Source: Acidobacteriaceae bacterium
Lineage (GTDB): Bacteria; Acidobacteriota; Terriglobia; Terriglobales; Acidobacteriaceae
Assembly: GCA_003166855.1 (NCBI GenBank)
Contig: PMUM01000330.1
Coordinates: forward strand, 541-64,540
Reading direction: 5' to 3'
DNA: 64,000 nt
Shown: piece by piece, positions 45 to 23,906 of the stretch
Numbering within the stretch: the first letter of the stretch is position 1
Layout: each line of letters opens with the position of its first letter
Translations under genes and position numbers: made by a program
Notes under the pieces: model-generated
Told to the model about the DNA's origin: nothing
The model's input: the letters and a program-made list of their open reading frames with translations, nothing else
Database searches by the model: none

Positions 45-1442
45 TCAGGCATATGCATGTAATCCAGGCAATAAGTAGGTAACGCCGAAGAAGGTAAACA
101 TCACCACCGCGAATCCGAGGATGGCGAAGTAGGCCGCGCGGCGTCCGCGCCAGCCGCGGGTAATGCGCATGTGCAGGTAGCCCGCATACACCAGCCAAGT
201 AATCGCCGCCCACGTCTCTTTGGGATCCCAGTTCCAGTAGGACCCCCAGGCCCGGTTAGCCCAGTAGGCGCCGGCGGCGATCATCAGGGTGAGCAAGGGA
301 AAAGCGATGCAAATTGTCTTGTACGTGATGCGATCGAGCGCGTCGGCATCCGGCAGCAGTCGTTCGAGATCCTGGCGCCGCCAGAGAAGCAGCAGGTAAA
401 GCAGGTTGGCGAAGATACCGCCGACCAGCGCGGACAGAATGAAGGGGCTCGCGGACAGGCTGGTTGCGTATAACCCTTCCGCGTCGAGCGATGGATATTG
501 TCCGGCTCGTACGCGCAGCACGAAGAAGACTAACGCCAACGATTGCAGCAGAATACTGATGAAGACGGCGCGATCGGCAACCGCCAGCAAGCCTTCGTTC
601 TTCTTGAGGCGTGACAGAATGTAGAGCACCAGCGGAGCAGCCACAGCGGCGAAGACCAGCAGCATCAGCCAGCCGAGGTCGGGGATGGTGACGAACAACC
701 GCACGCCGCGTGAGACGAATACCTCCGCCTTATTCTCAGCGTCCCAGGCAATTACGTTGAAGCCGCCCCACTTCTCGAAGCGAGTCAGCACCGCGGCATA
801 AATTCCTACGGTGAAGATGCTGGTTGCCGCCAGGAATAATTCCGTCTTTACCTTGTCCTGGATCAGGAACATCATGGCCAGTGCAAAACTCAGGGCACAC
901 GCCGCATACGCCAGCATGGCGAGGGTTACGTGAACGTGCAGCCATGTAGATTGCAGCGCCGGCACCAACGGCCGCACTTCGCTGGGCAGAAGCTGCATCA
1001 GGATGACGCCGACAATCGCGACCGGCATGGTCACGGTGCCGATGACTTTTACACCGTACTTTTTCTCGGCTATGAGGGTGAGCGCGGCCAGGGTCCACAC
1101 GAAACTCAGCAGCATTTCATAGATGCTGGCGAACGGCGGATGTCCCGCTTCATACCAGCGATGCGCCACCGCCCCGGTATTGGCCAGCAGTCCCGCCCAC
1201 GTCATGAGAGAGGCGAACTTGATGTAAGCTTCCGTCCCGGTCACGCCGAAGCCGAGATACAGCGCTCCCGCGCCCCCGTAGAAGACCAGCGCGGCATAGA
1301 GCAGATTGGCCTCACTCAGAATGTTTCCGCTCTTCACCACATTCAGAAAAGCGATGAACAGCAGAAACGCAATTCCCAACCCCACCATGACGACCAGCGT
1401 TGTGCCGGTCGCGGGATGCTGTTCAACTTTTTCGCTTGCCAT
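45..1442 (-). CDS. ccsA: cytochrome c biogenesis protein CcsA/ResC (System II heme-handling membrane protein)
   Basis: 465-aa polytopic membrane ORF. Trp-rich WWD-type motif [14 protein letters not shown] with a following conserved His. GGAGGAAG Shine-Dalgarno upstream. Starts 21 nt downstream of the ResB-like gene. Confidence 0.9.
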
Positions 1443-1463
1443 ACACTTCCTCCGTAGCCGGAC

Positions 1464-2924
1464 TCACCGACCGGCGATTGATGTGGCTTGCTGGGCAGAG
1501 GCCACGAGTTCGGGTTTCAGTTCCTTCTTAATTTGCTCCACCACGTTCTTGAATCTAAGTTCGAATGCGTCGCGATTGCGATTCGCCGTGCCACCGATCC
1601 AAAGTGCGGTCCGGCCGCGCGCATCCACCACGGGAACGACCCAGAAGCGCATGTGAACCACGTAGAACACAAAGGTCAGGCCGATCGCCATCAGCACGAC
1701 GCCTGCCCATACTGCCCACTGGCCGGGTTCGTGCGAGACCTGCAGCCCGGTGTAAATGCCAGTCTTCAGGTCTTTGGGATCGAAAGTGTAGGGGGAGGAC
1801 GCATTCTCATCGATTCCCGGCATCTCGGGCAGCCACACGTTGACGCTAGCGTTGGCTTTCTTCGACGTCACGATCATGTGGACCGCGGGATTCGTGATGT
1901 CCTTGCTGCGTGCATAGACGTGACCGTCTTGCACTACGAAGTCGGGGATGAACTCCACAAGTTGCACGCTGGTGTCGGCATCAAGCGCCACCGTCTGGTT
2001 CATGCCTAAAGAGATTTCCTGCGGCGTGCCTTTCGCGCCGTTCGCTGGAGTCGCGTTCAGAATCAACTGATCGAGCTTCCCGGTGCGGCCGTAGCTGGCC
2101 TGGTAGAAGCGCAGTCCCTGATAGACCAGCGGATCGTTGACCACGATTTCTTTTCTCGAAACCTCGCGGCCGCCTTCGACCACGGCCAGCTTCGACCACC
2201 ATCGTTTCGGCGAGCCGTCGGCATAAGTTTCCTCGCCCGTGCCGTCGCAGCGAATCGAGAACGGAATGGTCCGCATGGCGCCATTTTTCGTCTCGATCTG
2301 GTTGCTCGATGTTCCCGGACTCAGCATCAGAAATCCGCGCCACCCGTAGAGCGAGTCGACGATGAAGCCCAGGAAAATCAGCAGCAGGCTGGCATGCACG
2401 ATGTAGACAGCCATCTCGGAGATGCGACTGCGCTCTGAGAACAAAGAGAAGCTATCCGTTCGTACTATCCGCTCCGTCTTCAGTCCCAGGTGCTTGAAGG
2501 CGCGCTCGGCTGCGCTCAATCCCTGCTCTTCATCGGCAACTGCAATATGCGCCTGCGTCGGCAGAACTTTGCGGAAACTTTCGTCGGGGCTCTTATAAGG
2601 ACGCGCGAAGTACCGCCAGGCATTGGGGAAGCGCTGCACCGACGCGGCGATGATGCTCAGGCTGACCAGAATCAGCATGGCGACAAACCAGCGCGTGTGA
2701 AAGATATCGGTGAGGCCCGTGGCGTCGAGAAAGCGCAGCATGGCGGGCGAGTACGCGCGCTGCATGTCGTCGGCATCGGTCATCGGACGTTGCAGGATGA
2801 CCGTCCCCGCCGCAGAGAAGATGACAACCAGAATGATCAGAACGACGCCGGTCTTGATGGAACTGAGCGTCTGCCAGATTCTGCGGGGCATAACGCTAAC
2901 AGCGGAGCGAAGTGACAGGGCCAT
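1464..2924 (-). CDS. ccsB: cytochrome c biogenesis protein ResB/CcsB (Ccs1)
   Basis: 486-aa ORF with an N-terminal TM (GVVLIILVVIFSAAGTVIL), a large soluble domain and C-terminal TM segments (AVWAGVVLMAIGLTFVFYVV). Architecture and position directly upstream of ccsA are typical of System II. Confidence 0.85.
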   Translation of the reverse strand: MALSLRSAVSVMPRRIWQTLSSIKTGVVLIILVVIFSAAGTVILQRPMTDADDMQRAYSPAMLRFLDATGLTDIFHTRWFVAMLILVSLSIIAASVQRFPNAWRYFARPYKSPDESFRKVLPTQAHIAVADEEQGLSAAERAFKHLGLKTERIVRTDSFSLFSERSRISEMAVYIVHASLLLIFLGFIVDSLYGWRGFLMLSPGTSSNQIETKNGAMRTIPFSIRCDGTGEETYADGSPKRWWSKLAVVEGGREVSRKEIVVNDPLVYQGLRFYQASYGRTGKLDQLILNATPANGAKGTPQEISLGMNQTVALDADTSVQLVEFIPDFVVQDGHVYARSKDITNPAVHMIVTSKKANASVNVWLPEMPGIDENASSPYTFDPKDLKTGIYTGLQVSHEPGQWAVWAGVVLMAIGLTFVFYVVHMRFWVVPVVDARGRTALWIGGTANRNRDAFELRFKNVVEQIKKELKPELVASAQQATSIAGR

Positions 2925-3338: not shown

Positions 3339-4838
3339 GTGCACATGCATCGGTTGGCAATGGTCCCATCGTCCCAAAGCCGTCTTCATATGCACAGGAA
3401 AACCAGCATCGGTCGACCCCTCCCCCGTCTTCTCCAGTTGCTGGCGATTCTCGTTCTGATCGGGGCGATGCCCGCATTCGCCAAGGAGCATCCGGTTCCG
3501 CTCGACAAGAATGTCGACTCGGCGAAGTGTCTCGAGTGCCATGAGGACAAGTCGAAAGGCAAGGCGGTTCATTCCGCGATCGCCACGGGATGCTTGAGCT
3601 GTCACGAAGTTCGAGTGAACAAGGACATCACTCGCATCAAGCTGATCACCTCGACGCCGCAAGCGCTCTGCCTCAGTTGTCACGCCGATAAGGACGCCGC
3701 CACCTTGAAAGGGACGGTGCATCCCCCGGCTGTGCGCGATTGCATCAAGTGCCACGACCCGCACACAAGCGACAACAAAAATCAGTTGCTGAAGCCGGAG
3801 TCCGGCGACAAGGACCAGAATCTTTGCCTGACTTGCCACAAACAAGGATTAAACGTCCCAGAAAAAGGCAGTCGACACGCCGCTCTCGACATGGGATGCG
3901 ACACCTGCCACACGACTCACAAGACCGGCGAACCCGGCAAGGCTGAGTTCGATTTTCACCTGACCAAGAGTGCTCCAGCGCTTTGCATTGATTGCCACGA
4001 CGTCACGGACGCCAGCCTGCAGAAGGCGCATCACGATCAGCCCTTCGCTACGGCGGACTGCACCAGTTGCCACGATCCGCACCAGTCGGCTGTTCCGAAG
4101 CTGATGCGGCAGTTCCTGCATCCGCCGTTTGCCGACATGTCCTGCGAAACGTGCCATGCGCCGGCCAAGGACGGCAAAGTCGTGCTCGCGCAAGCCGACG
4201 TGAAATCGATCTGCGTGACCTGCCACAGCGACAAAGTCGAGAAGATCGAAAAGGCGAAAGTGCCGCACCCAGGAGCGGCGGGCGATTGCACCGACTGCCA
4301 CAATCCGCATGCCAGCCGCCAACCGGGCCTGCCCAAAACTAATGCGGTCGACATATGCCTGACCTGCCATACCGAACAGGCCGATCAAGGCAAGAAACAC
4401 TTTCTGCATCAGCCTGCATTCAAGCAGGGATGCGCCACCTGCCACGAGCCGCACGGCGGTGAGAACGATCATCTGCTGCGCGCCAAGACGGCGAATGCCC
4501 TCTGCCTCGAGTGCCACGGTCCAGATTCGCAGCCCAAGAAACTCGAAGCCGAGCATATGCTGACGATTTTCAACGGAAGTGTGCGGCTGCCCGAAGACTA
4601 CTTCTCGAAGAATAAAGTGGTCGTGCTCCCGCTGAAGTTCGGGCGTGGACATCCGATCGAGGGCCACCCGGTGTCCGATGTGCTGGACCCGACTGATATC
4701 ACGAAAATACACGCAAAAATTGACTGCCTGTCGTGCCACCAGCCGCATTCGTCAGCGCAGCCCGATCTGCTGTCGAAGGACCAAGTGAACAACGCTCAAT
4801 TCTGCGCCAGTTGTCACAAGGATCTAACCAAACGGTAA
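3339..4838 (+). CDS. multiheme c-type cytochrome, 16 CXXCH motifs, secreted
   Basis: I count 16 CXXCH motifs in 499 aa, many as CxxCH(D/N/E)PH. Signal-peptide-like LLQLLAILVLIGAMPAFA. Several in-frame Met at the N-terminus, so the exact start is uncertain. Confidence 0.9.
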   Translation: MHMHRLAMVPSSQSRLHMHRKTSIGRPLPRLLQLLAILVLIGAMPAFAKEHPVPLDKNVDSAKCLECHEDKSKGKAVHSAIATGCLSCHEVRVNKDITRIKLITSTPQALCLSCHADKDAATLKGTVHPPAVRDCIKCHDPHTSDNKNQLLKPESGDKDQNLCLTCHKQGLNVPEKGSRHAALDMGCDTCHTTHKTGEPGKAEFDFHLTKSAPALCIDCHDVTDASLQKAHHDQPFATADCTSCHDPHQSAVPKLMRQFLHPPFADMSCETCHAPAKDGKVVLAQADVKSICVTCHSDKVEKIEKAKVPHPGAAGDCTDCHNPHASRQPGLPKTNAVDICLTCHTEQADQGKKHFLHQPAFKQGCATCHEPHGGENDHLLRAKTANALCLECHGPDSQPKKLEAEHMLTIFNGSVRLPEDYFSKNKVVVLPLKFGRGHPIEGHPVSDVLDPTDITKIHAKIDCLSCHQPHSSAQPDLLSKDQVNNAQFCASCHKDLTKR

Positions 4839-4852
4839 TTTACATAAGGAGA

Positions 4853-6109
4853 ATGATGACCATGACCGAATTCAGCGCAAAGTTAAGCGATAGCCGCAAG
4901 GGGCGACTCGTCCTCTGTCTGATGCTCGGCCTGGCACTGCTTGCGCCCAGTTCTGCATTTGCGGATAAAAAAAAGAAGGCTGGCGATGCAAAGAAGATTC
5001 CGGTCATCGACTATTCGAACATTGTCTGGCCCAATCCGCCTGCCATCGCTCGCATCCGCTACACAGGTTTCTATGCTGCCGAAAAGATTTCGCAGGTCGA
5101 GGCGGGAAACGACAGCAAGAAAGCGAAGTGGATGGACCGCCTGGCGGGCACGCAGCCGCAGAGCGAAGCCAAAGTGCTGTACCAGCTCGCCGAACCGTAC
5201 GGCCTCGCCATCGATTCCAAGAACAATTTGTATATTGCAGATCAGAAGGTGGGCGCCATCTTCATCTTCAATACCGAGACGCGCGAGCTGGACATGATCA
5301 AGAACAAAGCTCACGCGCACTTCAACCGCATCATCGGGTTGGCCATGGACGATGGCGATCGTCTGTTTGTTTCCGATCCTGGCCTGCGCCACGTTCTCGT
5401 TTTCAATGCTGCCCACGTGGCCGAAGATGTGATTACCGAAGGAATCGTCAATCCTGGCGCGCTGGCGATCGATCGCGAGAACCGGCTGCTGTATGTCTCT
5501 GACATCGAACTCGATCAGGTGTTGGTGTACGACGCGGATTCGCTCAAACCGCTGCGCAAGATCGGCACCACCGGACATCACCACGAGCTCACCACCCCTG
5601 GGGATTTCGCAAGGCCCACCGGGCTGGCAGTGGATGCGGATGGCAACCTTTATGTCTGCGATACGCTGAACAACCGGGTCGAGATTTTTGACGCCGACGG
5701 AAAATTCGTCAGCACCTTCGGCAAGCCCGGCGACGGCCCGGGATACTTCTCGCGGCCCAAAGGCATTGCGATCGATGGCGACAACCATATCTGGGTCGCC
5801 GATGGCGTGCAGGACCGGGTGCAGGTGTACAACCAGGAAGGGCAGTTACTGATCTCGTTTGGCGGCCATGGCCTGCTGCCGGGGCAGTTCCAGGGCATCG
5901 TCAACATCGCGGCCGACAAGAACAATCGCATCTTCACCTCCGAGATCTATCCCGGAAGGGTGCAGCAATTCCGCTACGTCACCGATGCGGAGGCCGAGCA
6001 GGCCCGCAAGGACAAGGAAGAGCAGCGCGCGAAGAAAGCGGCGGGGAACAAAGAGGTCGTCCCCGTCACGCCTCCGGCGACCGAAGCCAAGAGCCCGCAG
6101 AGCAAGTAG
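4853..6109 (+). CDS. NHL-repeat six-bladed beta-propeller protein, secreted, with K/E-rich C-terminal tail
   Basis: Six blades of the type LY(I/V)xDxxxxR(V/I)xxF (LYIADQKVGAIFIFN ... IWVADGVQDRVQVYNQEGQ). Start moved to ATG 4853 (AAGGAG 1 nt upstream, signal peptide LVLCLMLGLALLAPSSAFA), because the track start 4733 overlaps the upstream cytochrome gene. Confidence 0.8.
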   Translation: MMTMTEFSAKLSDSRKGRLVLCLMLGLALLAPSSAFADKKKKAGDAKKIPVIDYSNIVWPNPPAIARIRYTGFYAAEKISQVEAGNDSKKAKWMDRLAGTQPQSEAKVLYQLAEPYGLAIDSKNNLYIADQKVGAIFIFNTETRELDMIKNKAHAHFNRIIGLAMDDGDRLFVSDPGLRHVLVFNAAHVAEDVITEGIVNPGALAIDRENRLLYVSDIELDQVLVYDADSLKPLRKIGTTGHHHELTTPGDFARPTGLAVDADGNLYVCDTLNNRVEIFDADGKFVSTFGKPGDGPGYFSRPKGIAIDGDNHIWVADGVQDRVQVYNQEGQLLISFGGHGLLPGQFQGIVNIAADKNNRIFTSEIYPGRVQQFRYVTDAEAEQARKDKEEQRAKKAAGNKEVVPVTPPATEAKSPQSK

Positions 6110-6110
6110 G

Positions 6111-6190
6111 CCCCCCTGTCATCCCCAGCATATCGAAGGACCTCAATTGGCGGCATAAAACACATTAGTCCTTCGCTCTGCTCAGGGGGG
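6111..6190. repeat. REP-like inverted repeat (family 1, GTCATCC..AGC..CGAAGGAC type) just after the NHL gene stop
   Basis: CCCCCTGTCATCCCCAGCATATCGAAGGAC ... GTCCTTCGCTCTGCTCAGGGGGG. The arms are complementary. Related to the copies at 8596-8665, 26617-26818 and 29112-29171. Confidence 0.6.
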
Positions 6191-6552
6191 CAACGTTGTG
6201 AATCCACGCGACTGTGCCAGCTGCTGCGATTTGCAACACACCTGCTGTGAACATCTGCAACTGAGGAATTTCACCAACCAACGTCGGCAGGTGGTTGTTT
6301 TCCCCCACTGAATGCGATTTTCCCGAATCGGAACGTAGGAGGAGAAGTGGATGTACGGGCTTTATATTCAATGACTTAGACGGAAAAATCTCCGAAATCG
6401 GAAACCCGCCTGTTTCGGGCGGCCAGTTGCACTTACATGGTCCGAGGGGCGGTTGCGACGAGTGCCCAGGCACAAAACGCAGCCCACGGCCTAAGCCTCT
6501 GGGAGTTCAGTAACAACTGGAAACACATCATTCATGGAGGTCGTGAAATTTT

Positions 6553-7467
6553 ATGAAGAAAGCGATGTTAGTTGTAATGTTCGTTCTAGCAGTCGGGGGC
6601 TTGGTGATGGCGCAGACTTGGTCATCGCCGGTTGACGTCCTCGGCGCACACAACAATAACGGACGCGGCTGCGCGGGCTGTCACTCGCCGCACAGCGGCT
6701 CTTTCGGTTCCGGCCACGCCGGCGCCGCCGATACTGGCAGCTATGCATTGTGGGGGCAGGATGCCAGCCCACTGTACGGTAAGACGATCGCATTTGGCGA
6801 CACCGGAAAGTACACCGAACTTCTGCCCTCCAGCATCTCCACGGGCAGCACCGAAGTCGGCGGCATTCTCCTTTGCCTGAGCTGCCATGACGGCAACGTC
6901 ACGGCCAGCAACATGATGGTCAACCAATCCTATGAACAGAGGATCGGCCTTCTGACCAATACCTCTTATGGGACGGGCAAGATTCCTACCCTGCTCGGTA
7001 ACGACGGCACGACGGCCGGCAACTACACCAACGACCACCCAGTGGGCCAGCTGGCTCTCATCAGCACTGGCAGCGGATTGGTCAACACCGCTGGCGTTCT
7101 GTCGGTAACCGCTGGCAGCCCCTATGCGCAGTTCGTAGCCAATTACGGGTGGCCGGCACTGGCCCCTGGCAAATGGTCGAGCCCCTACGGCGTCACCTCT
7201 ACAGGCGCGCCATATGTAGTTTGCACCACTTGCCACAACCAGCACGTGATGACGGTTTACACGTCCAGCGCTTCGAGCCCGATCGCGAACGACGGCGGCG
7301 GCAAGTACTATGCCACCTACTTCTTCGTGAACGGCCCCTACAATCCGAACATCAACAACGTGGCCAATGCGAACGCTCCTTCGACCACGCAGTTCTGCCG
7401 CCAGTGCCACTTTGGCGAGTCGAACGAAGCCAACAACACCAACAACATCACGACAGTATTCCAGTAG
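6553..7467 (+). CDS. tetraheme c-type cytochrome, secreted, low heme density (candidate filament/extracellular cytochrome)
   Basis: 4 CXXCH motifs (CAGCH, CLSCH, CTTCH, CRQCH) in 304 aa. 9 His in total, enough for bis-His ligation of 4 hemes. Signal peptide MKKAMLVVMFVLAVGGLVMAQ. G/S/T/N-rich. GGAGG about 13 nt upstream. Strong terminator directly downstream. Confidence 0.85.
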   Translation: MKKAMLVVMFVLAVGGLVMAQTWSSPVDVLGAHNNNGRGCAGCHSPHSGSFGSGHAGAADTGSYALWGQDASPLYGKTIAFGDTGKYTELLPSSISTGSTEVGGILLCLSCHDGNVTASNMMVNQSYEQRIGLLTNTSYGTGKIPTLLGNDGTTAGNYTNDHPVGQLALISTGSGLVNTAGVLSVTAGSPYAQFVANYGWPALAPGKWSSPYGVTSTGAPYVVCTTCHNQHVMTVYTSSASSPIANDGGGKYYATYFFVNGPYNPNINNVANANAPSTTQFCRQCHFGESNEANNTNNITTVFQ

Positions 7468-7487: not shown

Positions 7488-7517
7488 GGGGGAGAGGATT
7501 ACTCTCCCCTTTTTTTA
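7488..7517 (+). terminator. rho-independent terminator after the tetraheme gene
   Basis: GGGGAGAG-gatta-CTCTCCCC followed by a run of 7 T, about 20 nt after the stop codon. Confidence 0.8.
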
Positions 7518-7550: not shown

Positions 7551-8573
7551 ATGAAATACCAACTCCCCATCTGCGGTTTTCTGGCCCTGGCACTCTCGGC
7601 GGCATCGGCCCAAATGGCTTCACACTCGCCGACCGCGATCACGAACACGGCCTCTGCCCAGACCTCACCTCTGCAAGTGAGCGACAAGCCCGTGGCACGG
7701 GTGAACGGCGCAGTGCTGACCGATCGCGACCTGCTGCGCGAGATGTATATGATCTTTCCCTACGCGCAACAGCACAACGGATTCCCCAAGGCGCAGGAAG
7801 CAGAGATCCGCCAAGGTGCGCTGGAGATGATCATTTTCGAGGAACTTGTCTACCAGGAAGCGGTGCGGCGCAAGCTGACGATCTCGCCAGAGAAATTGAA
7901 TCGCGCCCAGGCTGATTTTCGTGGCCAGTTCAAGAGTCCCGACCAGTACCAGCAATACCTGCAAACTGAAATGCAGGGTTCCGAGCAAAAATTGCGCCAG
8001 CAGATGAGGCGCTCATTGCTCATCGAGCAAGTCCTGAAGACCGACGTGGAAGATAAGTCCGCCGTTTCATTGGCTGAAGTACAGGCGTACTACGCCAAGA
8101 ATCCGGCGAAGTATCAACAGGGAGAGACATTCACATTCCAGAGTATTTCAGTAGTGCCTCCGCTGAAAGACACTCCCGAGCAGGCGAAGCAAGCTCGCGG
8201 CAAGGCTGAGGACGCGCTGCGCCAGGCCAAGGCGACGAAGAGTTATCAGGATTTCGGATTGTTGGCGGAAAAGATCTCCGAGGACGATTTCCGGGTGAAC
8301 ATGGGCGACCACAAAGTTGTTCCGGCGGACAAGCTACCGCCCCAGGTTGTGAAAGCTTTGCAATCCATGCCAGCAGGACAGGTCAGCGGATTGATTCAGA
8401 TTGAGAGTGCCTTCACGATCATTCGCCTGAATGCCCATACTGCGCCGCGCAAGAAGCCGCTGTCCGAGGTCAAGACCGAACTGAAGACCAATTTGCAGAA
8501 GAGCAAATACGAGAAACTGCGTTCGAACCTTGCGAAGCAATTGCGTTCCAAAGCCAAGATTGAAATGGTGTAG
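7551..8573 (+). CDS. peptidyl-prolyl cis-trans isomerase, SurA/PpiD-like with parvulin (PpiC) domain, periplasmic
   Basis: Signal peptide (ICGFLALALSAASAQ), helical SurA_N-like N-terminal part, and a parvulin-like segment MPAGQVSGLIQIESAFTIIRLN. GAGGAA Shine-Dalgarno. Confidence 0.8.
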   Translation: MKYQLPICGFLALALSAASAQMASHSPTAITNTASAQTSPLQVSDKPVARVNGAVLTDRDLLREMYMIFPYAQQHNGFPKAQEAEIRQGALEMIIFEELVYQEAVRRKLTISPEKLNRAQADFRGQFKSPDQYQQYLQTEMQGSEQKLRQQMRRSLLIEQVLKTDVEDKSAVSLAEVQAYYAKNPAKYQQGETFTFQSISVVPPLKDTPEQAKQARGKAEDALRQAKATKSYQDFGLLAEKISEDDFRVNMGDHKVVPADKLPPQVVKALQSMPAGQVSGLIQIESAFTIIRLNAHTAPRKKPLSEVKTELKTNLQKSKYEKLRSNLAKQLRSKAKIEMV

Positions 8574-8878: not shown

Positions 8879-10732
8879 ATGAAGGCAGCGAATCGAATCA
8901 TCGGATTAGCAATACTGATGATGGCGCAACTTATATGCGCCCAAAGCGTGCCCCAGTCCCAGACCCCAGAACTCTCGATTGGCGAAAACACAAAGCTGAG
9001 CGCCGGCGGCCTGTTCACCTTCGGATACAGTGGAGATTATGGCGACGTCATTCCCTCCGACCACGGACTGACATTCGGAGTTGACGGCAAGCTCTCCGGT
9101 TATTACTACAATCCCAACTTTATTTCATTCACGGCATCGCCGTACTACAACCAGTCGCGGGCCGATTCCAGCTATCAATCGCTGACTGGGGCGAGCGGCG
9201 TCAGTGCGACAGCCAACCTCTTCAGCGGCAGCCATTTTCCGGGATCGGTGAGCTACCGCTATGACCGGAACAGCAGCGGGACGTTTGGTCTGAGCGGGCA
9301 GCCCAACTTTACGACCATCGGAAAGGGCGATGGTTTCGCTGTCAACTGGAGCGCCCTGCTTCCGAATCTGCCCACTCTTTCTGTTGGATATTCGCAAGGC
9401 GATGGCAGTGGCACGATTTATGGAACCAGCGAAGAAACAACGACGAGCACGAGACTGTTCAATGTGCGCTCCGGCTATCAGATCGCGGGATTTCGGCTGA
9501 ACGCTTTTTACGACCGCAACAGCTTGAACTCAAAATTTCCGGAATTCCTGTCAGGCCAGTCGGAATCGGTGCAGGACTCAACTGGCCACGACGTGGGAGT
9601 TGGAGCGCAACACGCTCTGCCCCTTCACGGCCAGTTTTATGCGAACTACAACCGATCGTCGGCCGAGAGCAACTACTTCTCAGATACGGGACAGAGTTCC
9701 AACGTCTCGAACTATACCGACGATATCGTAAACACCGGCGCGAGTTTTCATCCCACGCAGAAACTATCACTGAATGTCACCGAGAATTACACGAGCAACC
9801 TGAATGGATATCTTGCCCAGAGTTTGAGCAGTAACGGAACCGCACAGCCTGGAATCAGCTTGGGGACCGGGGCGCATTCCTCGACCATAGGCGGTGGCGC
9901 GACCTACCAGTTCACGAATTTTCTTTCGGCGTCATCGCAGGCCACCTATTACGACCAGGAATATTTCGGGAAGAGCTACACCGGAACTTACTTGAGCGGC
10001 ACGGTGAACTACGGTAAGCGGCTGTGGGATATGTTCACGTTCTCCGGCTCGGTGGTGGACAGCAGCAACGGCCAGGGGACCAACGCCTTGGGGTTCATTG
10101 GCAATGTGAATTTCTTTCACCGTTTCAAGGGCTGGCAGACATCAGGCGTATTCAGTTATGCCCAGAATGTGCAGTCGTTGCTGGTGACGTATACGAGCTC
10201 GTACTACAGCTACAGTGTGAATTTGCATCGCCGTTTGCCTGCCGGGTTGACCTGGACGGCGGCGTTCAACGGAACCCGCAGCGGTCTGACGAACTACCAG
10301 GGAACGAGCAGCCAGGGGGAAGGTTATTCGACGTCGCTTAGCTCGCGGAGGTTCGCTGTTACCGGTAATTACACACAGTCGACGGGGATCTCGCTGCTCG
10401 GCGCTGGCGGATTCGTGCCGGTTTCAGGAACACCCGGCGTGACTGATTTCATTACCTTTGGCGGATCAAGTTACGGCGGTGGCATTTCGGCAACCCCGAT
10501 CCGGCGGCTTGTCATCGCGGGGAGTTTTAGTCGCGCTATCAGCAATACGATTGGTGAGACGATCTCGCACAACAATACCGAAATCTACAATGCCCAGTTG
10601 CAGTACCATCTACGCAGGATCGGACTGCAGGCTGGGTACACGCGCTTCACGCAGGGCATCAGCGCGGTGGGAGCGCCAGCCAACACGACATCTTATTTTG
10701 TGGGTATCTCCAGATGGTTCGACTTCTTCTAG
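8879..10732 (+). CDS. outer-membrane beta-barrel protein (porin-like), no heme sites
   Basis: Signal peptide MKAANRIIGLAILMMAQLICAQS. The mature part has no Cys, is S/T/G/N/Y-rich with alternating hydrophobic residues, and ends ...YFVGISRWFDFF (aromatic C-terminus typical of BAM-assembled barrels). Confidence 0.6.
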   Translation: MKAANRIIGLAILMMAQLICAQSVPQSQTPELSIGENTKLSAGGLFTFGYSGDYGDVIPSDHGLTFGVDGKLSGYYYNPNFISFTASPYYNQSRADSSYQSLTGASGVSATANLFSGSHFPGSVSYRYDRNSSGTFGLSGQPNFTTIGKGDGFAVNWSALLPNLPTLSVGYSQGDGSGTIYGTSEETTTSTRLFNVRSGYQIAGFRLNAFYDRNSLNSKFPEFLSGQSESVQDSTGHDVGVGAQHALPLHGQFYANYNRSSAESNYFSDTGQSSNVSNYTDDIVNTGASFHPTQKLSLNVTENYTSNLNGYLAQSLSSNGTAQPGISLGTGAHSSTIGGGATYQFTNFLSASSQATYYDQEYFGKSYTGTYLSGTVNYGKRLWDMFTFSGSVVDSSNGQGTNALGFIGNVNFFHRFKGWQTSGVFSYAQNVQSLLVTYTSSYYSYSVNLHRRLPAGLTWTAAFNGTRSGLTNYQGTSSQGEGYSTSLSSRRFAVTGNYTQSTGISLLGAGGFVPVSGTPGVTDFITFGGSSYGGGISATPIRRLVIAGSFSRAISNTIGETISHNNTEIYNAQLQYHLRRIGLQAGYTRFTQGISAVGAPANTTSYFVGISRWFDFF

Positions 10733-11832
10733 ACGATCGAGGCAGAGCGGTGGTCCGCAGCGGACTGGCTCTTGCCGGGCTGACGGTTGCGCTCGCGCTG
10801 TTGCTGGCGTCCCCTGCAGACGCGGCGAAGCGTCCGAAGGAGATGGTCGCACCCTCCGCACCCGACTTGCTGATGGACGGCGGGCGCAAGCTCTCATTCG
10901 AGCGCAGCTTCAGCCTGGAGCGCGAGGTCAAGCCCAAGCGCAGTTTCTGGACCCGTGTGGTCGACGTGATCGCGGGCCTGCCCGATTTTCATTATCTGGT
11001 AAGCCCCTACAGTGTGGTCACCGATTCACGCGGGCGCATCATCGTTACCGATGTAGCGGCGTCTGGCGTGCACATCTTCGACTTCGAGCAGCAGAAATAT
11101 AAATTCCTCTCGCGGCGCGATGCGAGGAAGGATCCCATGCTCACGCCGCAATGCGTGGCCGTCGATGCCCAAGACAATATCTACGTAACTGATTCGCAGG
11201 CGGGCAAGGTTTTTGTGTTCGATGCGAATGGCAAGTATCGCCGCGCGATTGGCAGCTTGAAAGGTGGCGAAGGATATTTCAAGCGTCCCACGGGCATTGC
11301 CGTGGATTCCGCGGCCCAGCGCATTTACGTTACCGACACGCTTCGTAACAAGATTTTCATGATGGACATGCAGGGCAGCGTGCTGCAGACCATCGGAAAG
11401 ACGGGCGCCGGCGACGGCGAGTTCAACTATCCCACCGAACTGCGGCTGCATGGACAGGATTTGGCGGTGGTCGACGCCATGAATTTCCGGGTGCAGGTGT
11501 TCGACCGCTCCGGCACCTTCCGCTACGCCATCGGCAAGGCTGGGGACGGCGCGGGATGGATCTTCCGGCCCAAAGGCATCGGCTTTGATTCCGAATCGCA
11601 CTTGTATGTGGTCGATGGAGCTTGGGGCGTGGTGCAGGTCTTCGACGAACAGGGGCAGTTGCTGTATTACTTCGGCGGAAAAGGAACCGGGGCAGAACAG
11701 TTTCAACTGCCCACGGGACTGCAAATTGACAATCACGACCGCATATACGTGGTCGACTCCTTCAACCGTCGCGTCCAAGTGTTTCACTACTACGGCGTCA
11801 CGCAGGCGGCCGACGGGAGGAAGCAACCGTGA
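10714..11832 (+). CDS. NHL-repeat six-bladed beta-propeller protein, secreted
   Basis: Six blades (IIVTDVAASGVHIFD, IYVTDSQAGKVFVFDANGK, IYVTDTLRNKIFMMDMQG, LAVVDAMNFRVQVFDRSG, LYVVDGAWGVVQVFDEQGQ, IYVVDSFNRRVQVFHY). An alternative GTG start at 10750 has GAGG upstream and would remove the 19-nt overlap with the barrel gene. Confidence 0.8.
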   Translation: MVRLLLDDRGRAVVRSGLALAGLTVALALLLASPADAAKRPKEMVAPSAPDLLMDGGRKLSFERSFSLEREVKPKRSFWTRVVDVIAGLPDFHYLVSPYSVVTDSRGRIIVTDVAASGVHIFDFEQQKYKFLSRRDARKDPMLTPQCVAVDAQDNIYVTDSQAGKVFVFDANGKYRRAIGSLKGGEGYFKRPTGIAVDSAAQRIYVTDTLRNKIFMMDMQGSVLQTIGKTGAGDGEFNYPTELRLHGQDLAVVDAMNFRVQVFDRSGTFRYAIGKAGDGAGWIFRPKGIGFDSESHLYVVDGAWGVVQVFDEQGQLLYYFGGKGTGAEQFQLPTGLQIDNHDRIYVVDSFNRRVQVFHYYGVTQAADGRKQP

Positions 11833-13745
11833 AGCCGCTCCTGTCACTGGCATGCCTGTTCGTCGTCGCGCAGAGTTTTGCCCAGGTGCAGCCCAACGGG
11901 GATGTGCTGGGCATGCACAACCTGTCTTTGTCCAGTGGCGCGTCGGTCTATTCGCAGGGGAGTCTTGGTTGCACGTTTTGCCACGCTCCGCACAGTGGAT
12001 TGGGCGGCAACACCCCGCTCTGGAATCAGAAGCTGTCGCAGAAGTCGTACGTGCCTTACAGCAGCACCACCGATCCGAATCTGGGCAACACGCAGCCCAC
12101 GCTGGGAGTCACCAGCAGTCTGTGCCTGAGTTGTCATGACGGAACCGTGGCCGTCGGACAGTCCGCGGCTTACGGACAGTTGCCGACGGTCGGATCGCTG
12201 AATGCGGCTGATTCCTTCGGCACTACCCTGACCGGCTCGCACCCGTTCAGCCTGGTCATCCCGCTGAAAGATGCTTCCAACCTGGTTGCTTCGCTGGCCT
12301 CGCAAGGCAAGACGGCCGATCCTACTGGAGCAGTGAAACTGATTAAAGGCAACATCGAATGCACGAGTTGCCACAGTCCACACGTTCAGAACATCGACAG
12401 GATTGCGCAGAATTTTCTGGTGCGCGACAGTTCCAACGCGCAGATGTGTCTGGCGTGCCACGATCCGACGCGCGTGGTGCAGGGACAGGTCAATCCGCTG
12501 GCTGGATTCACCAATAGCATCCATCAGACCGCCACGAATCAGGTTTCCCCCGACGCGCACGCCGGTGCGTACGCCACCGTTGGTGTGAACGCCTGCACGT
12601 CGTGCCACATGTCGCACGATTCGGTCGCTCCGGCCCGCCTGCTTCGGCCGGCGGTACCCTCGGCCCCGTCGTATGATCCGGTCACGCAGAGTTGCATGAC
12701 TTGCCACGGCGGAGGCACCTATCTGGCGCCGGCAATTCCCAACATCATGGCCGAGGTGGCGAAGGTCAGCCATCCCATGCCTTCGGGAAATAACTTCCAC
12801 GATGCCGGCGAAACGCCGCTGCTGAACAACAACCGGCACGCCACTTGCGTGGATTGCCCCAGCGCGCACGCGTCCAATCCGGAGTTGCAGTTTTCCGCGC
12901 CACCCACCATTCGTCCGCCGCAGTCTGGCGCAACCGGCATCAGTGCCCTCGACGGCATCACCGCGATCATTCCAGCCGTCAATCAATACGAAACCTGTCT
13001 GCGTTGTCACGGAACCAGCATCGGCAAGCAGCGGATGGTGATTTACGGTTACGCGCCCATTCGAGTCGTCACGGCTCCAGATTCGTTGAACATCATCCCG
13101 GAACTCGCCTCGACGGCGACGTCGAGCCATCCGGTGACTCACACTCGTTCCAGTCCACTGCCGCAACCCAGCCTGCTGGTGAACATGCTCGACGAGAAGG
13201 GACTGGCATCGGCGCGCCTGGTCGGTACTCAGATCTTCTGTACCGACTGCCACAACAGCGACGACAACCGGGAGTTCGGTGGCGCCGGACCGAATGGTCC
13301 GCATGGGTCGATCAACTCGCACATTCTGGAGCGCAACTATCAGTTCAGCCAGGCGGCCGTCCCTGGCGGACCGGTCACGAATCTTTTCCCCAATCCCGAT
13401 ACCAGCGTCGCCGGCCCTTACTCGATGTGCGCGAAGTGCCACGATCTCACTCAAATCTTCGCGAACACCAGCTTTCCGCAGCACAATCTGCATTCCTATC
13501 AGTATGGGTTCAGCTGCTCGGTCTGCCACACTGCACACGGAAATGGAACCACGTCACCCACTATCACCGGCGAGCGCTTAGTGAATTTCGACGCCAACGT
13601 CGTCGGCGCGAACGGCGCCGCTCCCATCGCTTACAACCACGGCACCAATACCTGCACGCTGATGTGCCACTCCGCCGCCCACAATTCGGATGGAACTGTG
13701 ACCTCGACTGCACCGTCGGTGAAACCTAAAGGGAAAGCGAAGTGA
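11829..13745 (+). CDS. multiheme c-type cytochrome, 10 canonical CXXCH plus one CX3CH and one degenerate CXXCP site, secreted
   Basis: GTG start overlaps the NHL gene stop (GTGA). Signal peptide MKPLLSLACLFVVAQSFAQ. CXXCH counted by eye at 10 positions, plus CTLMCH near the C-terminus and CVDCPSAH at residues 340-347. Confidence 0.9.
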   Translation: MKPLLSLACLFVVAQSFAQVQPNGDVLGMHNLSLSSGASVYSQGSLGCTFCHAPHSGLGGNTPLWNQKLSQKSYVPYSSTTDPNLGNTQPTLGVTSSLCLSCHDGTVAVGQSAAYGQLPTVGSLNAADSFGTTLTGSHPFSLVIPLKDASNLVASLASQGKTADPTGAVKLIKGNIECTSCHSPHVQNIDRIAQNFLVRDSSNAQMCLACHDPTRVVQGQVNPLAGFTNSIHQTATNQVSPDAHAGAYATVGVNACTSCHMSHDSVAPARLLRPAVPSAPSYDPVTQSCMTCHGGGTYLAPAIPNIMAEVAKVSHPMPSGNNFHDAGETPLLNNNRHATCVDCPSAHASNPELQFSAPPTIRPPQSGATGISALDGITAIIPAVNQYETCLRCHGTSIGKQRMVIYGYAPIRVVTAPDSLNIIPELASTATSSHPVTHTRSSPLPQPSLLVNMLDEKGLASARLVGTQIFCTDCHNSDDNREFGGAGPNGPHGSINSHILERNYQFSQAAVPGGPVTNLFPNPDTSVAGPYSMCAKCHDLTQIFANTSFPQHNLHSYQYGFSCSVCHTAHGNGTTSPTITGERLVNFDANVVGANGAAPIAYNHGTNTCTLMCHSAAHNSDGTVTSTAPSVKPKGKAK

Positions 13746-14165: not shown

Positions 14166-15851
14166 ATGCCTACACCTGCAGAGCCCGTACCCACCAAGAG
14201 CGAACGCCACAACCCCGTAAGGCGGTATGGGCTGCAAATCGCCAGCGCCATTGTGGTGCCTCTGGTGCTCTTGGGTGTGATCGAGGGCGCGTTGCGCCTG
14301 TTCGGCGTCGGCTTTCCCACGGAACTGACAGTGCCTTGCACTCTGCGGGGCAAGCCTGCTGCCTGCTACAACCTGTTTTTTCCCGCGCCTTTCTTCCCGC
14401 CGGGCATGATCAAGACCCCGCAAGCGTATGCGATTCCAGCGGAGAAAACGCAGGGCACCTTCCGCATCTTTGTGCTCGGGGAGTCCGCGGCCATGGGCGA
14501 TCCGGATCCGGCCTACGCTTTCAGCCGGTACCTCGACGTGATGTTGCGGGAACGTTTCCCGTCGATGAAGTTCGAGGTCGTGAACACCGGGAGCGTAGCC
14601 ATCAACTCTCACGTGCTTCTGCCGATCGCGAAGGGTCTCGCGGAACAGCATCCCGACCTGTTCATCATCTACTCAGGCAACAATGAAGTCGTGGGACCCT
14701 ATGGACCCGGGACCGCGCTGACCACGTCCGGCATGAGCCTGCCGGTCATCCGCACCAGCATCTTCGTCCGCTCCACCCGCATCGGCCAGTTCCTCACCAA
14801 GGTCGGAACTCAAAAGAAAGAATGGCGCGGGATGGAGATGTTTCTCGACAAGCAGGTGCGGGAGAGTTCGCCACTCATGCAGTATTCGTACGCCAACTTC
14901 GAGCAGAACCTGCGGGACACCGTTGCCGTTGCGCACAATTCCGGCACCCGAGTCATTATCAGCACCGTCGCCACCAATCTGAAAGACTGCGGACCGTTCT
15001 CATCTCTGCACCGCGAGAACTTGGGTCCTGACGACTTGCGTTCGTGGACAACGCTTGTGCAGCAGGGAGCGGACCTGGAGAGCACTCGCTACTACGCCGA
15101 TGCCCTGAAGGCCTACCAGGCGGCGACCAAGATCGATGACCAGTACGCCGAGTTGGAATTTCGCATTGCCCGGAGCCTGTGGATGCAGGGAGATTATGCG
15201 AGCGCGAAACAGCATTACCTTCGCGCTCGCGATCTCGACACGCTACGCTTCCGCGCCGACACCAGAATCAATGACATCAATCGCTCGGTTGCGTCCTCGT
15301 CTCCGGGCGCAGAACTCGTGGACGCCGATGCCATCTTTTCCAAAGAAAGCCCGAACGGGATCATTGGCAGTGAACTTGTGTATGAGCATGTCCACATGAC
15401 TCCCCTCGGCAATTATCTGCTCGCTCGGGCGATGTTCTTACAGATAGCGAGCAAGTTGCCATCCGAGGCCGGACATCCCTTGACGGAAGCCGACGTTCCC
15501 TCTCAAGCAGAGTGCGAGCAGTTCCTGGCGTTCACCGGCCATGACCGTTCCCGCATCGCGACGGAAATGCTGGATCGCTTGCAGAAGCCGCCTTTTACCA
15601 ATCAACTGAACCACTCCGATCAAATCTTGCGCTTGATGCTCAAATCGCAGGAGCCTGCGGAAAATCCCGATGAAACTGCCGCCGAGTACGAGTGGGCGAT
15701 CCGGAAGAATCCGGGCGACCCAGTCTTGCATTACAACTACGGACTTTTCCTCTTCGAGCACAACCGCAATGCCGCGATCCAACAGCTGAGCTTGTCCCGC
15801 CCATGGGATGGATTTCCAGTTTTTACGCCGGACGGGATGCCCGTGCCATAA
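14166..15851 (+). CDS. SGNH/GDSL-like (DltD/AlgX-like) membrane-anchored protein with TPR repeats
   Basis: N-terminal TM (IASAIVVPLVLLGVIEGAL). FRIFVLGESAAMGDP and IIYSGNNEV blocks resemble SGNH blocks I and III. TPR-like YADALKAYQAATKIDDQYAELEFRIARSLWMQGDYASAKQHY. The track ORF begins at TTG 14124; I use the first ATG. Confidence 0.6.
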   Translation: MPTPAEPVPTKSERHNPVRRYGLQIASAIVVPLVLLGVIEGALRLFGVGFPTELTVPCTLRGKPAACYNLFFPAPFFPPGMIKTPQAYAIPAEKTQGTFRIFVLGESAAMGDPDPAYAFSRYLDVMLRERFPSMKFEVVNTGSVAINSHVLLPIAKGLAEQHPDLFIIYSGNNEVVGPYGPGTALTTSGMSLPVIRTSIFVRSTRIGQFLTKVGTQKKEWRGMEMFLDKQVRESSPLMQYSYANFEQNLRDTVAVAHNSGTRVIISTVATNLKDCGPFSSLHRENLGPDDLRSWTTLVQQGADLESTRYYADALKAYQAATKIDDQYAELEFRIARSLWMQGDYASAKQHYLRARDLDTLRFRADTRINDINRSVASSSPGAELVDADAIFSKESPNGIIGSELVYEHVHMTPLGNYLLARAMFLQIASKLPSEAGHPLTEADVPSQAECEQFLAFTGHDRSRIATEMLDRLQKPPFTNQLNHSDQILRLMLKSQEPAENPDETAAEYEWAIRKNPGDPVLHYNYGLFLFEHNRNAAIQQLSLSRPWDGFPVFTPDGMPVP

Positions 15852-15867
15852 GAACGTCTACCTGTGC

Positions 15868-17346
15868 CTAGAACTTGTTGTACATGAACTGCGCCGTGCT
15901 GGCCCCGCGCGTCAAAGTCACGATCAATAAGAAAATCAATGCCAGCGCGTAGAGCGGCGGGAGCCAGAACCAGCGCGAGCGTGCCATGAACCCGATGATT
16001 CCCGTGTGAGCTGCGGATTCCGAAGTCTGCGCTTCACTGGAGTAGCGTTCGAGTGCGTCGCTCACGAACACCACGATCGCGTATCCCGCAGCCATCGCCG
16101 CCACCAATAGATACAGACTCCCACCCAGAAAGTGCGAACCGTAGCTCGCGGGCGACAGGACAGCCGACAACATCTGACCTGCTTCAGGTAGGGAATTGGC
16201 GCGGAAGAAAATCCATCCTAGATTGATGAGCAGCATGGTGGCCATCAAGGAAACCGGTATCCAGAACCTGGCGGCTGGCTCCCAGTCGAACTTCCGCTGC
16301 ATCCGCTGCAGTTGACGATGCAAGACCAGCAGCACTCCGTGATAGCAGCCCCACAGCAGAAAGAGCACAGTCGCTTTGTGCCACAGCCCGAACAGAATCA
16401 TCGCGACCAGCAGAGCCAGATTTCGCCACCACACTTCCCGGCGCAACATCGCCAGCGGGAGAAAAATGTAGTCACGAATCCAGAACGACAGCGACATATG
16501 CCATCGGGTCCAGAAGATCGAGACGTTAGTGGATTGGAAGGGGCGCGCGAAGTTTTCGGGGACGATGAAGCCCATCGCTTGAGCGGCGCCGATTGCGATG
16601 TGCGAGTATCCGGCGAAATCGAGAAAAAGCTGCAGGCCGTATCCCAGCGCCAGGCACCAGACATCTGTGCCACTCCAGTGCGTGACGCGATCGAACCCGC
16701 TCGCGATATCATCGCCGCCCAGGATCCCTTGGCCCAGCAGTTTGGCCAGTTGCACCATGAACACGCCGGTAGCGATACGCCTGAACCCGTGACCGATGTC
16801 GTCCCAGCGCGTCAGTGTCTCGGAACGGAACTGCGGCAGCATGTCGGGCATGCGGCAGACTGGTCCAGAGATCGTGACGGGAAAGAAAACCATGTACAGG
16901 GCAAACTCAAAAACAGAAGCATTGAGTTCTTCCCCGCGATAAAGATCAAAGAGGTAACTCATCGCCTGGAAGGTCCAGAACGACAATCCCAAAGGCTGAG
17001 CCAGATGCGAGAACCTCTGCAACGACGAAAACGGAAGATGGACGGCCACCTCGGGGAGGTACTTGAAGCTGCCGAGCAACGCCAGATTTAACAGAATGCC
17101 GAGAGAGAGGATGGCCGCGGAAGGCCTACGCTGAAGCCACCGCCCGATCAGGAAGTTGAGCACGGTCGATGAAGCCAGAACGGCCGCGAACCATGGTCCC
17201 CAGGTGACATAGAGCGCATAACTTGCAATCAGCAGCACCGTCTGCCGCGCAATTCGCGAGCGGACCTTCGCGAAGATAACTACGCAAAGCAGAAACAGCA
17301 GACAGTACAGGATGCCTTGGAACAACCTTCCTCCGTGCTTCAACAA
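15868..17346 (-). CDS. MBOAT family O-acyltransferase (DltB/AlgI-like)
   Basis: 492-aa polytopic membrane protein with the MBOAT signature region NVSIFWTRWHMSLSFWIRDYIFLPL (conserved His). TTG start as given in the track. Confidence 0.85.
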   Translation of the reverse strand: MLKHGGRLFQGILYCLLFLLCVVIFAKVRSRIARQTVLLIASYALYVTWGPWFAAVLASSTVLNFLIGRWLQRRPSAAILSLGILLNLALLGSFKYLPEVAVHLPFSSLQRFSHLAQPLGLSFWTFQAMSYLFDLYRGEELNASVFEFALYMVFFPVTISGPVCRMPDMLPQFRSETLTRWDDIGHGFRRIATGVFMVQLAKLLGQGILGGDDIASGFDRVTHWSGTDVWCLALGYGLQLFLDFAGYSHIAIGAAQAMGFIVPENFARPFQSTNVSIFWTRWHMSLSFWIRDYIFLPLAMLRREVWWRNLALLVAMILFGLWHKATVLFLLWGCYHGVLLVLHRQLQRMQRKFDWEPAARFWIPVSLMATMLLINLGWIFFRANSLPEAGQMLSAVLSPASYGSHFLGGSLYLLVAAMAAGYAIVVFVSDALERYSSEAQTSESAAHTGIIGFMARSRWFWLPPLYALALIFLLIVTLTRGASTAQFMYNKF

Positions 17347-21090: not shown

Positions 21091-21744
21091 TTACTGGCTC
21101 ACTTTCGGCTTGCGCGCCTCGGCAATCAATTTTTGGACCGCGGCTTTTTTGTCGTCGGACAGCGTCGGATTTAACTTCAGCAACTGCTGCCACGCTGCCA
21201 CTGCGCCGCTGGGATCGTTCTTGGCCTGCAAGCGAATCATTCCCAGGTTGAACAGAGAATTCGCGTCTTTGGGATCGTAGGTGAGCGATTGCTGCAGTTG
21301 CTGGATCGCTCCGTCGGCATCCCTTTCATAGAATAGGCACGACGCTAGATCGGTGCGCGCGGCCACATTCTTGGGATCGGCGTCGATGGCCTTCTGGAAG
21401 TATCCCGCAGCCTCTTTGAACTGATGGGTCGATTTGTATAGCGTTCCGATCTGATTCAGCAGGTCGGAGTTGTTGGGGTCAGTCTTCAGTTTCGCGAGAA
21501 GAGGTTCGGCCTTTTTATCGGCCATGTGCTTCATCTCTTCCAGACTCGGCATCTGTGGCGTACCGCTCGGAATGCCCGTGGCGGCGGCCACTTGCGGCGC
21601 AGGAGAAGGTTGTGCGGAGCGCGACGCCGACCCGCGAAACAGATAGCCCAAAGCCAAGCCCACAACCAGACAGATGGTGGCCATGGCATACACCTGCGAC
21701 GTCCGCCAGCCTCGCGCTACGCCGGGTTCTGCTTCATTCGCCAT
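21091..21744 (-). CDS. membrane-anchored TPR repeat protein
   Basis: TM anchor (VYAMATICLVVGLALGYLF) followed by TPR units (NQIGTLYKSTHQFKEAAGYFQKAIDADPKN ...). Start set to the ATG with AAAGGAAG upstream; the track start 21807 is 21 codons longer. Confidence 0.75.
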   Translation of the reverse strand: MANEAEPGVARGWRTSQVYAMATICLVVGLALGYLFRGSASRSAQPSPAPQVAAATGIPSGTPQMPSLEEMKHMADKKAEPLLAKLKTDPNNSDLLNQIGTLYKSTHQFKEAAGYFQKAIDADPKNVAARTDLASCLFYERDADGAIQQLQQSLTYDPKDANSLFNLGMIRLQAKNDPSGAVAAWQQLLKLNPTLSDDKKAAVQKLIAEARKPKVSQ

Positions 21745-23894: not shown

Positions 23895-23906
23895 TGGAGG
23901 ACCTTA

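Follow-up and report, generated by a model that had tools for sequence, protein, structure and literature searches.

The stretch of DNA analyzed here (the window) comprises 64,000 nucleotides (nt) of contig PMUM01000330.1 (assembly GCA_003166855.1; positions 541 to 64,540 of the forward strand), assigned to an Acidobacteriaceae bacterium, and its host is an uncultured acidobacterium of the Terriglobales related to Candidatus (Ca.) Sulfotelmatobacter. An open reading frame (ORF) at 6553-7467 on the plus strand, with an ATG start and a GGAGG ribosome-binding site ahead of it, codes for a 304-residue secreted cytochrome with four CXXCH heme-binding motifs. On profile comparison, this tetraheme protein is a distant and enlarged homolog of OmcE. 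We consider that it is probably the building block of an extracellular cytochrome wire of the OmcE type, because of its homology to OmcE, the order of its eight heme ligands, the omcE-like position of its gene, and the matching parts of the surrounding gene cluster. The gene and its immediate flanks contain the following features, all on the plus strand.

6110-6552, plus strand: upstream non-coding region of 443 nt with a GGAGG ribosome-binding site (alignment of 78 loci).
6553-7467, plus strand: coding sequence of the secreted tetraheme c-type cytochrome, a divergent OmcE-family protein and putative nanowire subunit (ORF, hhalign, and PDB profile matches).
6553-6612, plus strand: Sec signal peptide, MKKAMLVVMFVLAVGGLVMA, followed by QT (sequence; helix at residues 2-19 in the AlphaFold 2 [AF2] model).
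6649-6693, plus strand: heme-1 site, His33-x6-C40AGCH44-SP-H47, with two extra conserved histidines (alignment of 47 relatives).
6874-6894, plus strand: heme-2 site, C108LSCH112DG, invariant and aligned to OmcE, with which it has the CLSCHDG signature in common.
7030-7047, plus strand: distal histidine motif, N160-D-H162-P-V-G, whose OmcE counterpart is NDHPIG (alignments).
7222-7245, plus strand: heme-3 site, C224TTCH228-NQ-H231, with a conserved distal histidine; it is invariant and aligns with CSSCHDVH of OmcE.
7396-7410, plus strand: heme-4 site, C282RQCH286 (motif count and alignment).
7488-7517, plus strand: intrinsic terminator, a hairpin at 7488-7508 followed by a T-run (folding energy, -24.6 kcal/mol; z = -4.7 against shuffled sequences).

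The relationship to OmcE was established with a profile (A2) built from 47 diverse members of the focal family, down to 33% identity. In an hmmsearch of this profile against all PDB sequences, the only significant matches were 9YUQ (E value, 6.8e-11), confirmed as the OmcE nanowire bundle of Desulfuromonas soudanensis (DSOUD_2954), and 7TFS (E value, 0.0022), the OmcE filament of Geobacter sulfurreducens (GSU0618). The next match was NrfA, with an E value of 0.03, and no chain of OmcS, OmcZ, STC, NrfB, or the MtrA/MtrC type appeared at E values up to 10, so that the absence of these other cytochromes serves as an internal control for the search. When A2 was compared by hhalign with A3, an alignment of the OmcE family built around the D. 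soudanensis protein, the match had a probability of 99.4% and an E value of 2e-21 over 147 columns, and it took in the non-heme signatures CxxCHxPH, the LW after heme 1, CLSCHDG, and NDHP[IV]G. The homology lies mainly within the N-terminal 175 residues, and pairwise BLAST of the focal protein against an OmcE homolog gives an E value of 4e-5 with about 26% identity over the N-terminal half. The diverse profile was required for this result, as a profile of close relatives reached 9YUQ at a marginal E value of 0.008; a PDB search with the focal sequence alone returned only nanobodies, driven by composition. Among the family libraries, the threshold of the doubled-CXXCH domain is reached (PF09699, 27.0 bits against a gathering cut-off of 20.6; TIGR01905, 25.3 against 25.2), with no single matched stretch passing alone and the best one covering about 13 to 15 residues at heme 1. 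This is a generic motif family and is uninformative on function. PF22678 has no match in the focal protein, and the features of the OmcS type (six CXXCH motifs, about 400 residues, and similarity to OmcS) are likewise absent from this protein of four motifs and 304 residues.

The four CXXCH motifs, which begin at C40, C108, C224, and C282, account for all eight cysteines of the protein, and there are nine histidines (33, 44, 47, 55, 112, 162, 228, 231, and 286). Eight of the histidines (33, 44, 47, 112, 162, 228, 231, and 286) and the eight cysteines are conserved across the 47 relatives, which makes two histidines per heme and leaves none to spare; at the heme-1 site, H33, C40, C43, and H44 never vary, and at least 90% of the sequences have H47. 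The four CXXCH motifs and the four further histidines follow each other in an identical order in the focal family and in the OmcE family. OmcE-type wires need exactly eight histidines, and in both OmcS and OmcE, which have a common heme geometry, a histidine of one subunit ligates a heme of its neighbor. A preliminary description of this DNA had read the nine histidines as ligands for every heme with one in reserve, which did not survive the alignment, since position 55 is H or Q even among relatives more than 80% identical to the focal protein. For the same reason, His55 was rejected as a spare or intersubunit ligand and as the sign of a filament stopper. Nine histidines together with four hemes are the proposed traits of such a stopper, which in D. 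soudanensis is found only outside the omcE cluster (Petersen et al., bioRxiv 10.1101/2025.10.22.684050). Among the loci compared here, L006 codes for a second OmcE-like tetraheme with nine histidines (6679-7344 of that locus) within a Desulfuromonadia-type omcE cluster, and the OmcE homolog of L001 likewise has nine, so the count alone may mean little.

The first motif of the focal protein is GCAGCHSPHSG. With the preceding histidine, this region reads H-x6-CxxCH-xx-H, the spacing of the mature N terminus of OmcS (FHSGGVAECEGCHTMHNS; PDB 6EF8), while OmcE has H-x17-19-C. A decaheme cytochrome encoded in the same cluster (11829-13745, described below) bridges the two arrangements, as it combines the focal motif DVLGxHN with an OmcE-type H-x17-C spacing, an argument for equating His33 with the N-terminal distal histidine of OmcE. 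The resemblance of the first motif to the OmcS N terminus was correctly noted before, but CxxCHxxH is a motif found generally in PF09699 cytochromes. Of the double likeness to OmcE and OmcS that had been put forward, the relationship to OmcE stands, while the similarity in sequence to OmcS is limited to this N-terminal motif: OmcS has six hemes in 407 residues and no detectable sequence similarity to the focal protein beyond it, with a comparable heme density (1 per 68 residues in OmcS against 1 per 71 to 76 here).

Apart from the spare histidine and the uniqueness of the leader (see below), the features listed in the preliminary description were borne out. The signal peptide has no lipobox cysteine, as the first cysteine of the protein is C40, and cleavage is predicted between MKKAMLVVMFVLAVGGLVMA and QT, which would leave a mature protein of 284 residues. 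This is made up of G, S, T, and N to 43% and is nearly uncharged (13 D+E and 8 K+R), and its hemes are sparse, at 1 per 76 residues. It is Ser/Thr-rich, contains six N-x-S/T sequons, and may be glycosylated. The heme-free AF2 model (predicted local distance difference test [pLDDT], 71; predicted template modeling score [pTM], 0.68) consists of 19% helix, 14% strand, and 67% coil, and this proportion of coil falls inside the range reported for cytochrome nanowires. After the heme-4 site, the protein continues into a conserved C-terminal tail of 18 residues, which OmcE does not have.

The focal gene seems to form a transcription unit of its own. The 443-nt upstream region presumably holds its promoter and 5' untranslated region, and the alignment of 78 loci revealed conserved islands at about 6222-6240, 6261-6275, 6292-6307, 6415-6436, and 6480-6501; examples are GGAATTTCAC around 6264, TGGTTGTTTTCCCCCAC at 6292-6308, and GGCCTAAGCCTC at 6488-6499. 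A sigma-54 promoter search gave 35 matches against 35 expected, none of them in the leader, a sigma-70 consensus scan found nothing in the leader, and no Rfam family was matched anywhere in the window. Downstream, the terminator begins 20 nt past the stop codon and has a GC-rich stem. A hairpin with a T-run lies within 90 nt of the stop codon in 77 of 80 related loci, and the stem is kept in locus L005 despite its changed sequence. Together, the conserved terminator and the upstream islands fit a separately transcribed single-gene unit. The long leader and strong terminator to which attention had been drawn earlier are real, but the leader is not the sole long gap of the cluster, since about 305 to 345 nt precede the barrel gene, about 380 to 420 nt precede the TPR gene, and about 465 nt separate the divergent resB and 16-heme genes. 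Only the focal gene stands alone between a long upstream region on one side and a terminator on the other.

The genes around it form a cluster with the following members.

45-2924, minus strand: ccsB (45-1442) and resB (1464-2924), for system II cytochrome c maturation, divergent from the rest (library profiles).
3390-4838, plus strand: 16-heme DmsE/MtrA-like periplasmic cytochrome (16 CXXCH motifs; TIGR03508, 201 bits, above cut-off).
4862-6109, plus strand: NHL beta-propeller 1, directly upstream of the focal gene (Pfam NHL; start taken from gene calls).
7551-8573, plus strand: SurA-like periplasmic peptidyl-prolyl isomerase/chaperone (Pfam SurA_N_3 and Rotamase_2).
8879-10732, plus strand: predicted large outer-membrane beta-barrel of 617 residues with a signal peptide and a C terminus ending in RWFDFF (AF2 and Foldseek).
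10750-11832, plus strand: NHL beta-propeller 2 (Pfam NHL and BLAST).
11829-13745, plus strand: decaheme cytochrome of 638 residues (10 CXXCH motifs).
14166-15851: TPR protein.
15868-17325, minus strand: MBOAT acyltransferase.

The contents of this cluster coincide with the published parts list of the minimal omcE cluster of the Desulfuromonadia, which adjoins resB/ccsB, always codes for two multiheme cytochromes, two beta-propellers, OmcE, and a large beta-barrel, and is often trailed by TPR and glycosylation genes (Petersen et al., 10.1101/2025.10.22.684050). In the OmcE-family loci L001 and L006, an NHL propeller is followed by OmcE and then by a large barrel without a Pfam match, which is the position of the focal gene here, and L006 also has the adjacency to resB/ccsB. 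Several of the neighbors are related in sequence as well. The window propellers are 27 to 33% identical to those of omcE clusters (E values, 1e-37 to 1e-50), with NHL propeller 1 at 27 to 30% (1e-37 to 1e-44), and the 16-heme protein is 33% identical to the 19-heme protein of an omcE cluster (E value, 7e-35). The 617-residue barrel protein has no match in Pfam either; its AF2 model has about 30 long strands at low confidence, the matches listed by Foldseek are outer-membrane barrels, MtrB among them, and the AlphaFold 3 (AF3) model of a homolog matches MtrB (Fiorito 2026, 10.64898/2026.05.27.727921).

Downstream of the cluster, we found the MBOAT acyltransferase (15868-17325, minus strand), an AMP-binding enzyme, a GT2 glycosyltransferase, and a PMT_2 (protein mannosyltransferase-like) gene, the last three among ORFs at 17475-19166 (plus strand), 26825-27691 (minus strand), and 27746-29038 (minus strand). 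These genes parallel the glycosylation genes (families 2, 4, and 39) that come after many Geobacter omcE clusters. A second small cytochrome unit is located at 22188-24617 (plus strand), where a 568-residue protein with a weak M48-peptidase match is followed by a 236-residue heptaheme doubled-CXXCH cytochrome; a CcmH-like TPR protein is encoded nearby (21091-21807, minus strand). Just past the left edge of the window, adjoining ccsB, there is a two-component pair that may regulate the cluster. The same kind of pair, a sigma-54 response regulator and a HAMP histidine kinase, flanks a family member of 37% identity on its two sides. These observations come from loci L008 (1649-2518) and L002 (701-3506).

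Relatives of the focal protein are numerous, with more than 4,700 clusters at 90% identity in the protein database, the best 120 of which are 81 to 93% identical to it. Clustering at 50% gives 360 family representatives, and four CXXCH motifs were counted in every full-length one that was examined. By scanning one genome per GTDB species with alignment A1, we found a close relative in at least 307 species. The best 80 of these 307 are all metagenome-assembled genomes, with no cultured isolate among them, and 79 belong to the Acidobacteriota (Ca. Sulfotelmatobacter, Acidobacteriaceae, Terriglobales, and Ca. Acidoferrales). The remaining one (L089) is labeled Verrucomicrobiia and has the full acidobacterial cluster at 64 to 73% identity; the label could be a binning error or the cluster a product of lateral transfer.

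Synteny was counted in the 61 species loci with full 10-kb flanks among the best 80 relatives. Of these, 55 have the complete set of seven core genes in conserved order, and the SurA-like gene comes next after the tetraheme gene in 61 of 61. The tetraheme and chaperone genes are the tightest unit of the cluster, and the OmcE loci L001 and L006 have no such chaperone gene. Over the 55 complete loci, mean identity is 81% for the tetraheme, 81% for NHL2, and 84% for CcsB, and it lies between 67 and 77% for the barrel, the multiheme cytochromes, NHL1, and the chaperone. The tetraheme therefore ranks with the best-conserved cluster proteins, a wording that we softened from "most conserved" because NHL2 and CcsB are comparable and because the comparison is inflated for the tetraheme, the loci having been chosen by similarity to it. 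With this bias in mind, its mean of 81% compares with 75% across the 55 loci, and relative to L005 it is 86% identical, against 53 to 75% for the other cluster proteins. Its variation is concentrated in one loop (residues 169 to 189, approximately), with an 8-residue insertion in some relatives. Such conservation contrasts with Geobacter, in which surface and nanowire cytochromes evolve fastest.

The decaheme cytochrome appears to be a second relative of OmcE within the same cluster. Its residues 25 to 212, approximately, make up a complete OmcE-like module of four hemes and eight histidines (H30, C48xxCH, H55, C99xxCH, H140, C179xxCH, H186, and C208xxCH), after which there are six more hemes; the gene is translationally coupled to those of NHL2 and the barrel. 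By BLAST, the decaheme matches the focal protein with an E value of 7e-7. Petersen et al. (10.1101/2025.10.22.684050) report that the protein at the filament end is not encoded in Desulfuromonadia omcE operons. Here the decaheme is a natural candidate for a cluster-encoded junction between conduit and wire (the base) or for the tip, because its OmcE-like module is complete and closer to OmcE than is the focal protein. It also stands as a second candidate beside the tetraheme that the preliminary description had singled out.

There are also clear differences from the known OmcE systems. The mature focal protein has 284 residues against about 200 in OmcE, extra sequence being inserted between each two successive ligand motifs, and its sequence is highly conserved among relatives, unlike the loops of OmcE, which vary freely (Petersen et al., 10.1101/2025.10.22.684050). 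The window propellers carry Sec signals, those of omcE clusters lipoprotein signals, and the SurA-like chaperone gene after the focal gene has no counterpart in the OmcE loci L001 and L006. The host phylum, Acidobacteriota, lies outside the five phyla given for OmcE homologs in the same study. Within the Terriglobales, the cluster is apparently the same as EET1 (Fiorito et al. 2026, 10.64898/2026.05.27.727921), whose three-gene core of an MtrB-like porin, an NHL propeller, and an OmcE-like large cytochrome is transcribed in peat and corresponds to 8879-13745 of the window. In that preprint, the role of the OmcE-like element is given to the large cytochrome, and the tetraheme and the SurA-like chaperone are not mentioned.

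Several observations weigh against the tetraheme being a wire subunit. Eight histidines for four hemes fit equally well a monomer ligated wholly within its own chain, and many OmcE-like tetrahemes may not polymerize (Petersen et al., 10.1101/2025.10.22.684050). In the C-terminal half, alignment to OmcE is confined to the heme-3 motif (CTTCHNQH against CSSCHDVH), the whole protein is about 50% longer than OmcE, and the decaheme module, which aligns with an entire OmcE homolog (BLAST E value, 3.6e-14 over residues 30 to 211 of the decaheme), is closer to OmcE than is the focal protein, with its 4e-5. BLAST of the 617-residue barrel against an omcE-cluster barrel gives no similarity. In one genome (L009/L078), the pair of tetraheme and chaperone genes stands without the rest of the cluster and adjoins hyp genes, with no barrel cluster within 10 kb, and distant family members (37 to 40% identity) are found in unrelated contexts. 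When the heme-free AF2 model was compared with the PDB by Foldseek, no match, OmcE included, had an E value below 4, but we treated this null as uninformative for a coil-rich holo-cytochrome and did not count it against the relationship to OmcE.

Part of these observations would also suit an OmcE-family monomer that does not polymerize, a surface or periplasmic carrier docking on the barrel-cytochrome conduit as a terminal reductase or a shuttle. OmcE-like tetrahemes are widespread and only some are likely wires (Petersen et al., 10.1101/2025.10.22.684050), eight histidines are enough for a closed monomer, the C-terminal half and the 18-residue tail are unlike OmcE, and the genome without a barrel cluster near the gene, like the distant relatives in other contexts, fits a carrier too. 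We nevertheless hold this to be unlikely, as the large outer-membrane barrel and the beta-propeller by which Petersen et al. recognize probable wire formers are encoded nearby, here and in 55 of the 61 loci, and as the low heme density and coil-rich model are typical of wire subunits and not of compact carriers; the single-gene unit with its strong conserved terminator suggests, in addition, expression apart from the conduit genes. A different division of labor, in which the chief extracellular or long-range element is the decaheme, a role that Fiorito et al. propose for its homolog, and the tetraheme is a cap, an adaptor, or a periplasmic feeder, seems to us quite improbable. All solved OmcE-type wires are built of a small tetraheme and not of fusions, the six-heme C-terminal extension would obstruct head-to-tail stacking at one end and would suit a base or tip better, and it is the focal gene, whose product is among the most conserved of the cluster, that holds the omcE position between propeller and barrel. 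What speaks for this division is the full OmcE-like module of the decaheme with its H-x17-C spacing and stronger match to OmcE, its translational coupling to NHL2 and the barrel, and the AF3 model of its homolog, which matches 7TFS with a template modeling (TM) score of 0.70 and is predicted to be extracellular (Fiorito 2026, 10.64898/2026.05.27.727921).

Least probable of all, and in our view very unlikely, is an ordinary soluble periplasmic tetraheme (c3, STC/CctA, NrfB, or NapC/NirT) unrelated to wires and serving, for example, a hydrogenase or another respiratory enzyme. Such proteins also have four bis-His c-type hemes and a Sec signal, and in one genome the gene adjoins hyp hydrogenase-maturation genes, but the matches to the c7, c3, NapC/NirT, and CctA families cover single heme motifs and stay below the curated cut-offs (PF03264, 17.4 against 24.1; PF14537, 19.1 against 25; PF14522, 19.3 against 24.8; NF047727, 17.8 against 180). 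Hemes are about three times sparser in the focal protein than in c3-type proteins, the PDB profile search yields OmcE wires and none of these proteins, and the conserved company of barrel, propeller, and multiheme cytochrome genes in 55 of 61 loci points away from an ordinary carrier. No fold of the NrfB or NapC/NirT kind, which the preliminary description had named as the contrary outcome, was seen by Foldseek. Its proposal of an OmcE/OmcS-like protein that is the best candidate for a polymerizing subunit gains support, as far as sequence can tell, from the OmcE homology, the ligand order, and the omcE-like position of the gene.

If the tetraheme is an OmcE-type wire subunit, the mechanism that we infer from the cluster would be as follows. 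The pre-protein would be exported by Sec, the adjacent ResB/CcsB would attach the four c-type hemes, and the dedicated SurA-like chaperone encoded next door would handle the tetraheme, presumably a highly expressed protein, in the periplasm. It would reach the surface through or at the 617-residue barrel, with the NHL propellers helping as a scaffold. Outside the cell, the subunits would stack head to tail into a continuous insulated chain of bis-His hemes, in which one of the eight conserved histidines would ligate a heme of the neighboring subunit, as in OmcE and OmcS. Electrons from the 16-heme DmsE/MtrA-like cytochrome would pass through the barrel, and the decaheme with its OmcE-like N-terminal module would probably join the barrel to the wire or cap the wire. 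That the Terriglobales do assemble an OmcE-derived wire in this specific way, from an enlarged and conserved tetraheme, via a SurA-like chaperone, and with the decaheme as base or tip, is a tentative proposal that we regard as possible.

The OmcE wire family, its gene cluster, and the porin-NHL-cytochrome core of EET1 were already known, and cytochrome nanowire structures have been reported from G. sulfurreducens, D. soudanensis, and two archaea. New here is a putative OmcE-type subunit that is enlarged and strongly conserved and belongs to a new phylum, accompanied by what appears to be a dedicated chaperone and by a decaheme with an OmcE-like module. The cluster gives candidates for two questions of wire assembly, the dedicated periplasmic chaperone and the filament-end protein, and for the latter the decaheme would be the first cluster-encoded candidate for the component missing from Desulfuromonadia omcE operons. 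Terriglobales are among the most abundant soil and peat bacteria, and if the tetraheme polymerizes, these dominant bacteria would be capable of extracellular electron transfer over long distances, which would provide a molecular route for the respiration of particulate organic matter, a process that has been proposed to suppress methane formation in bogs.

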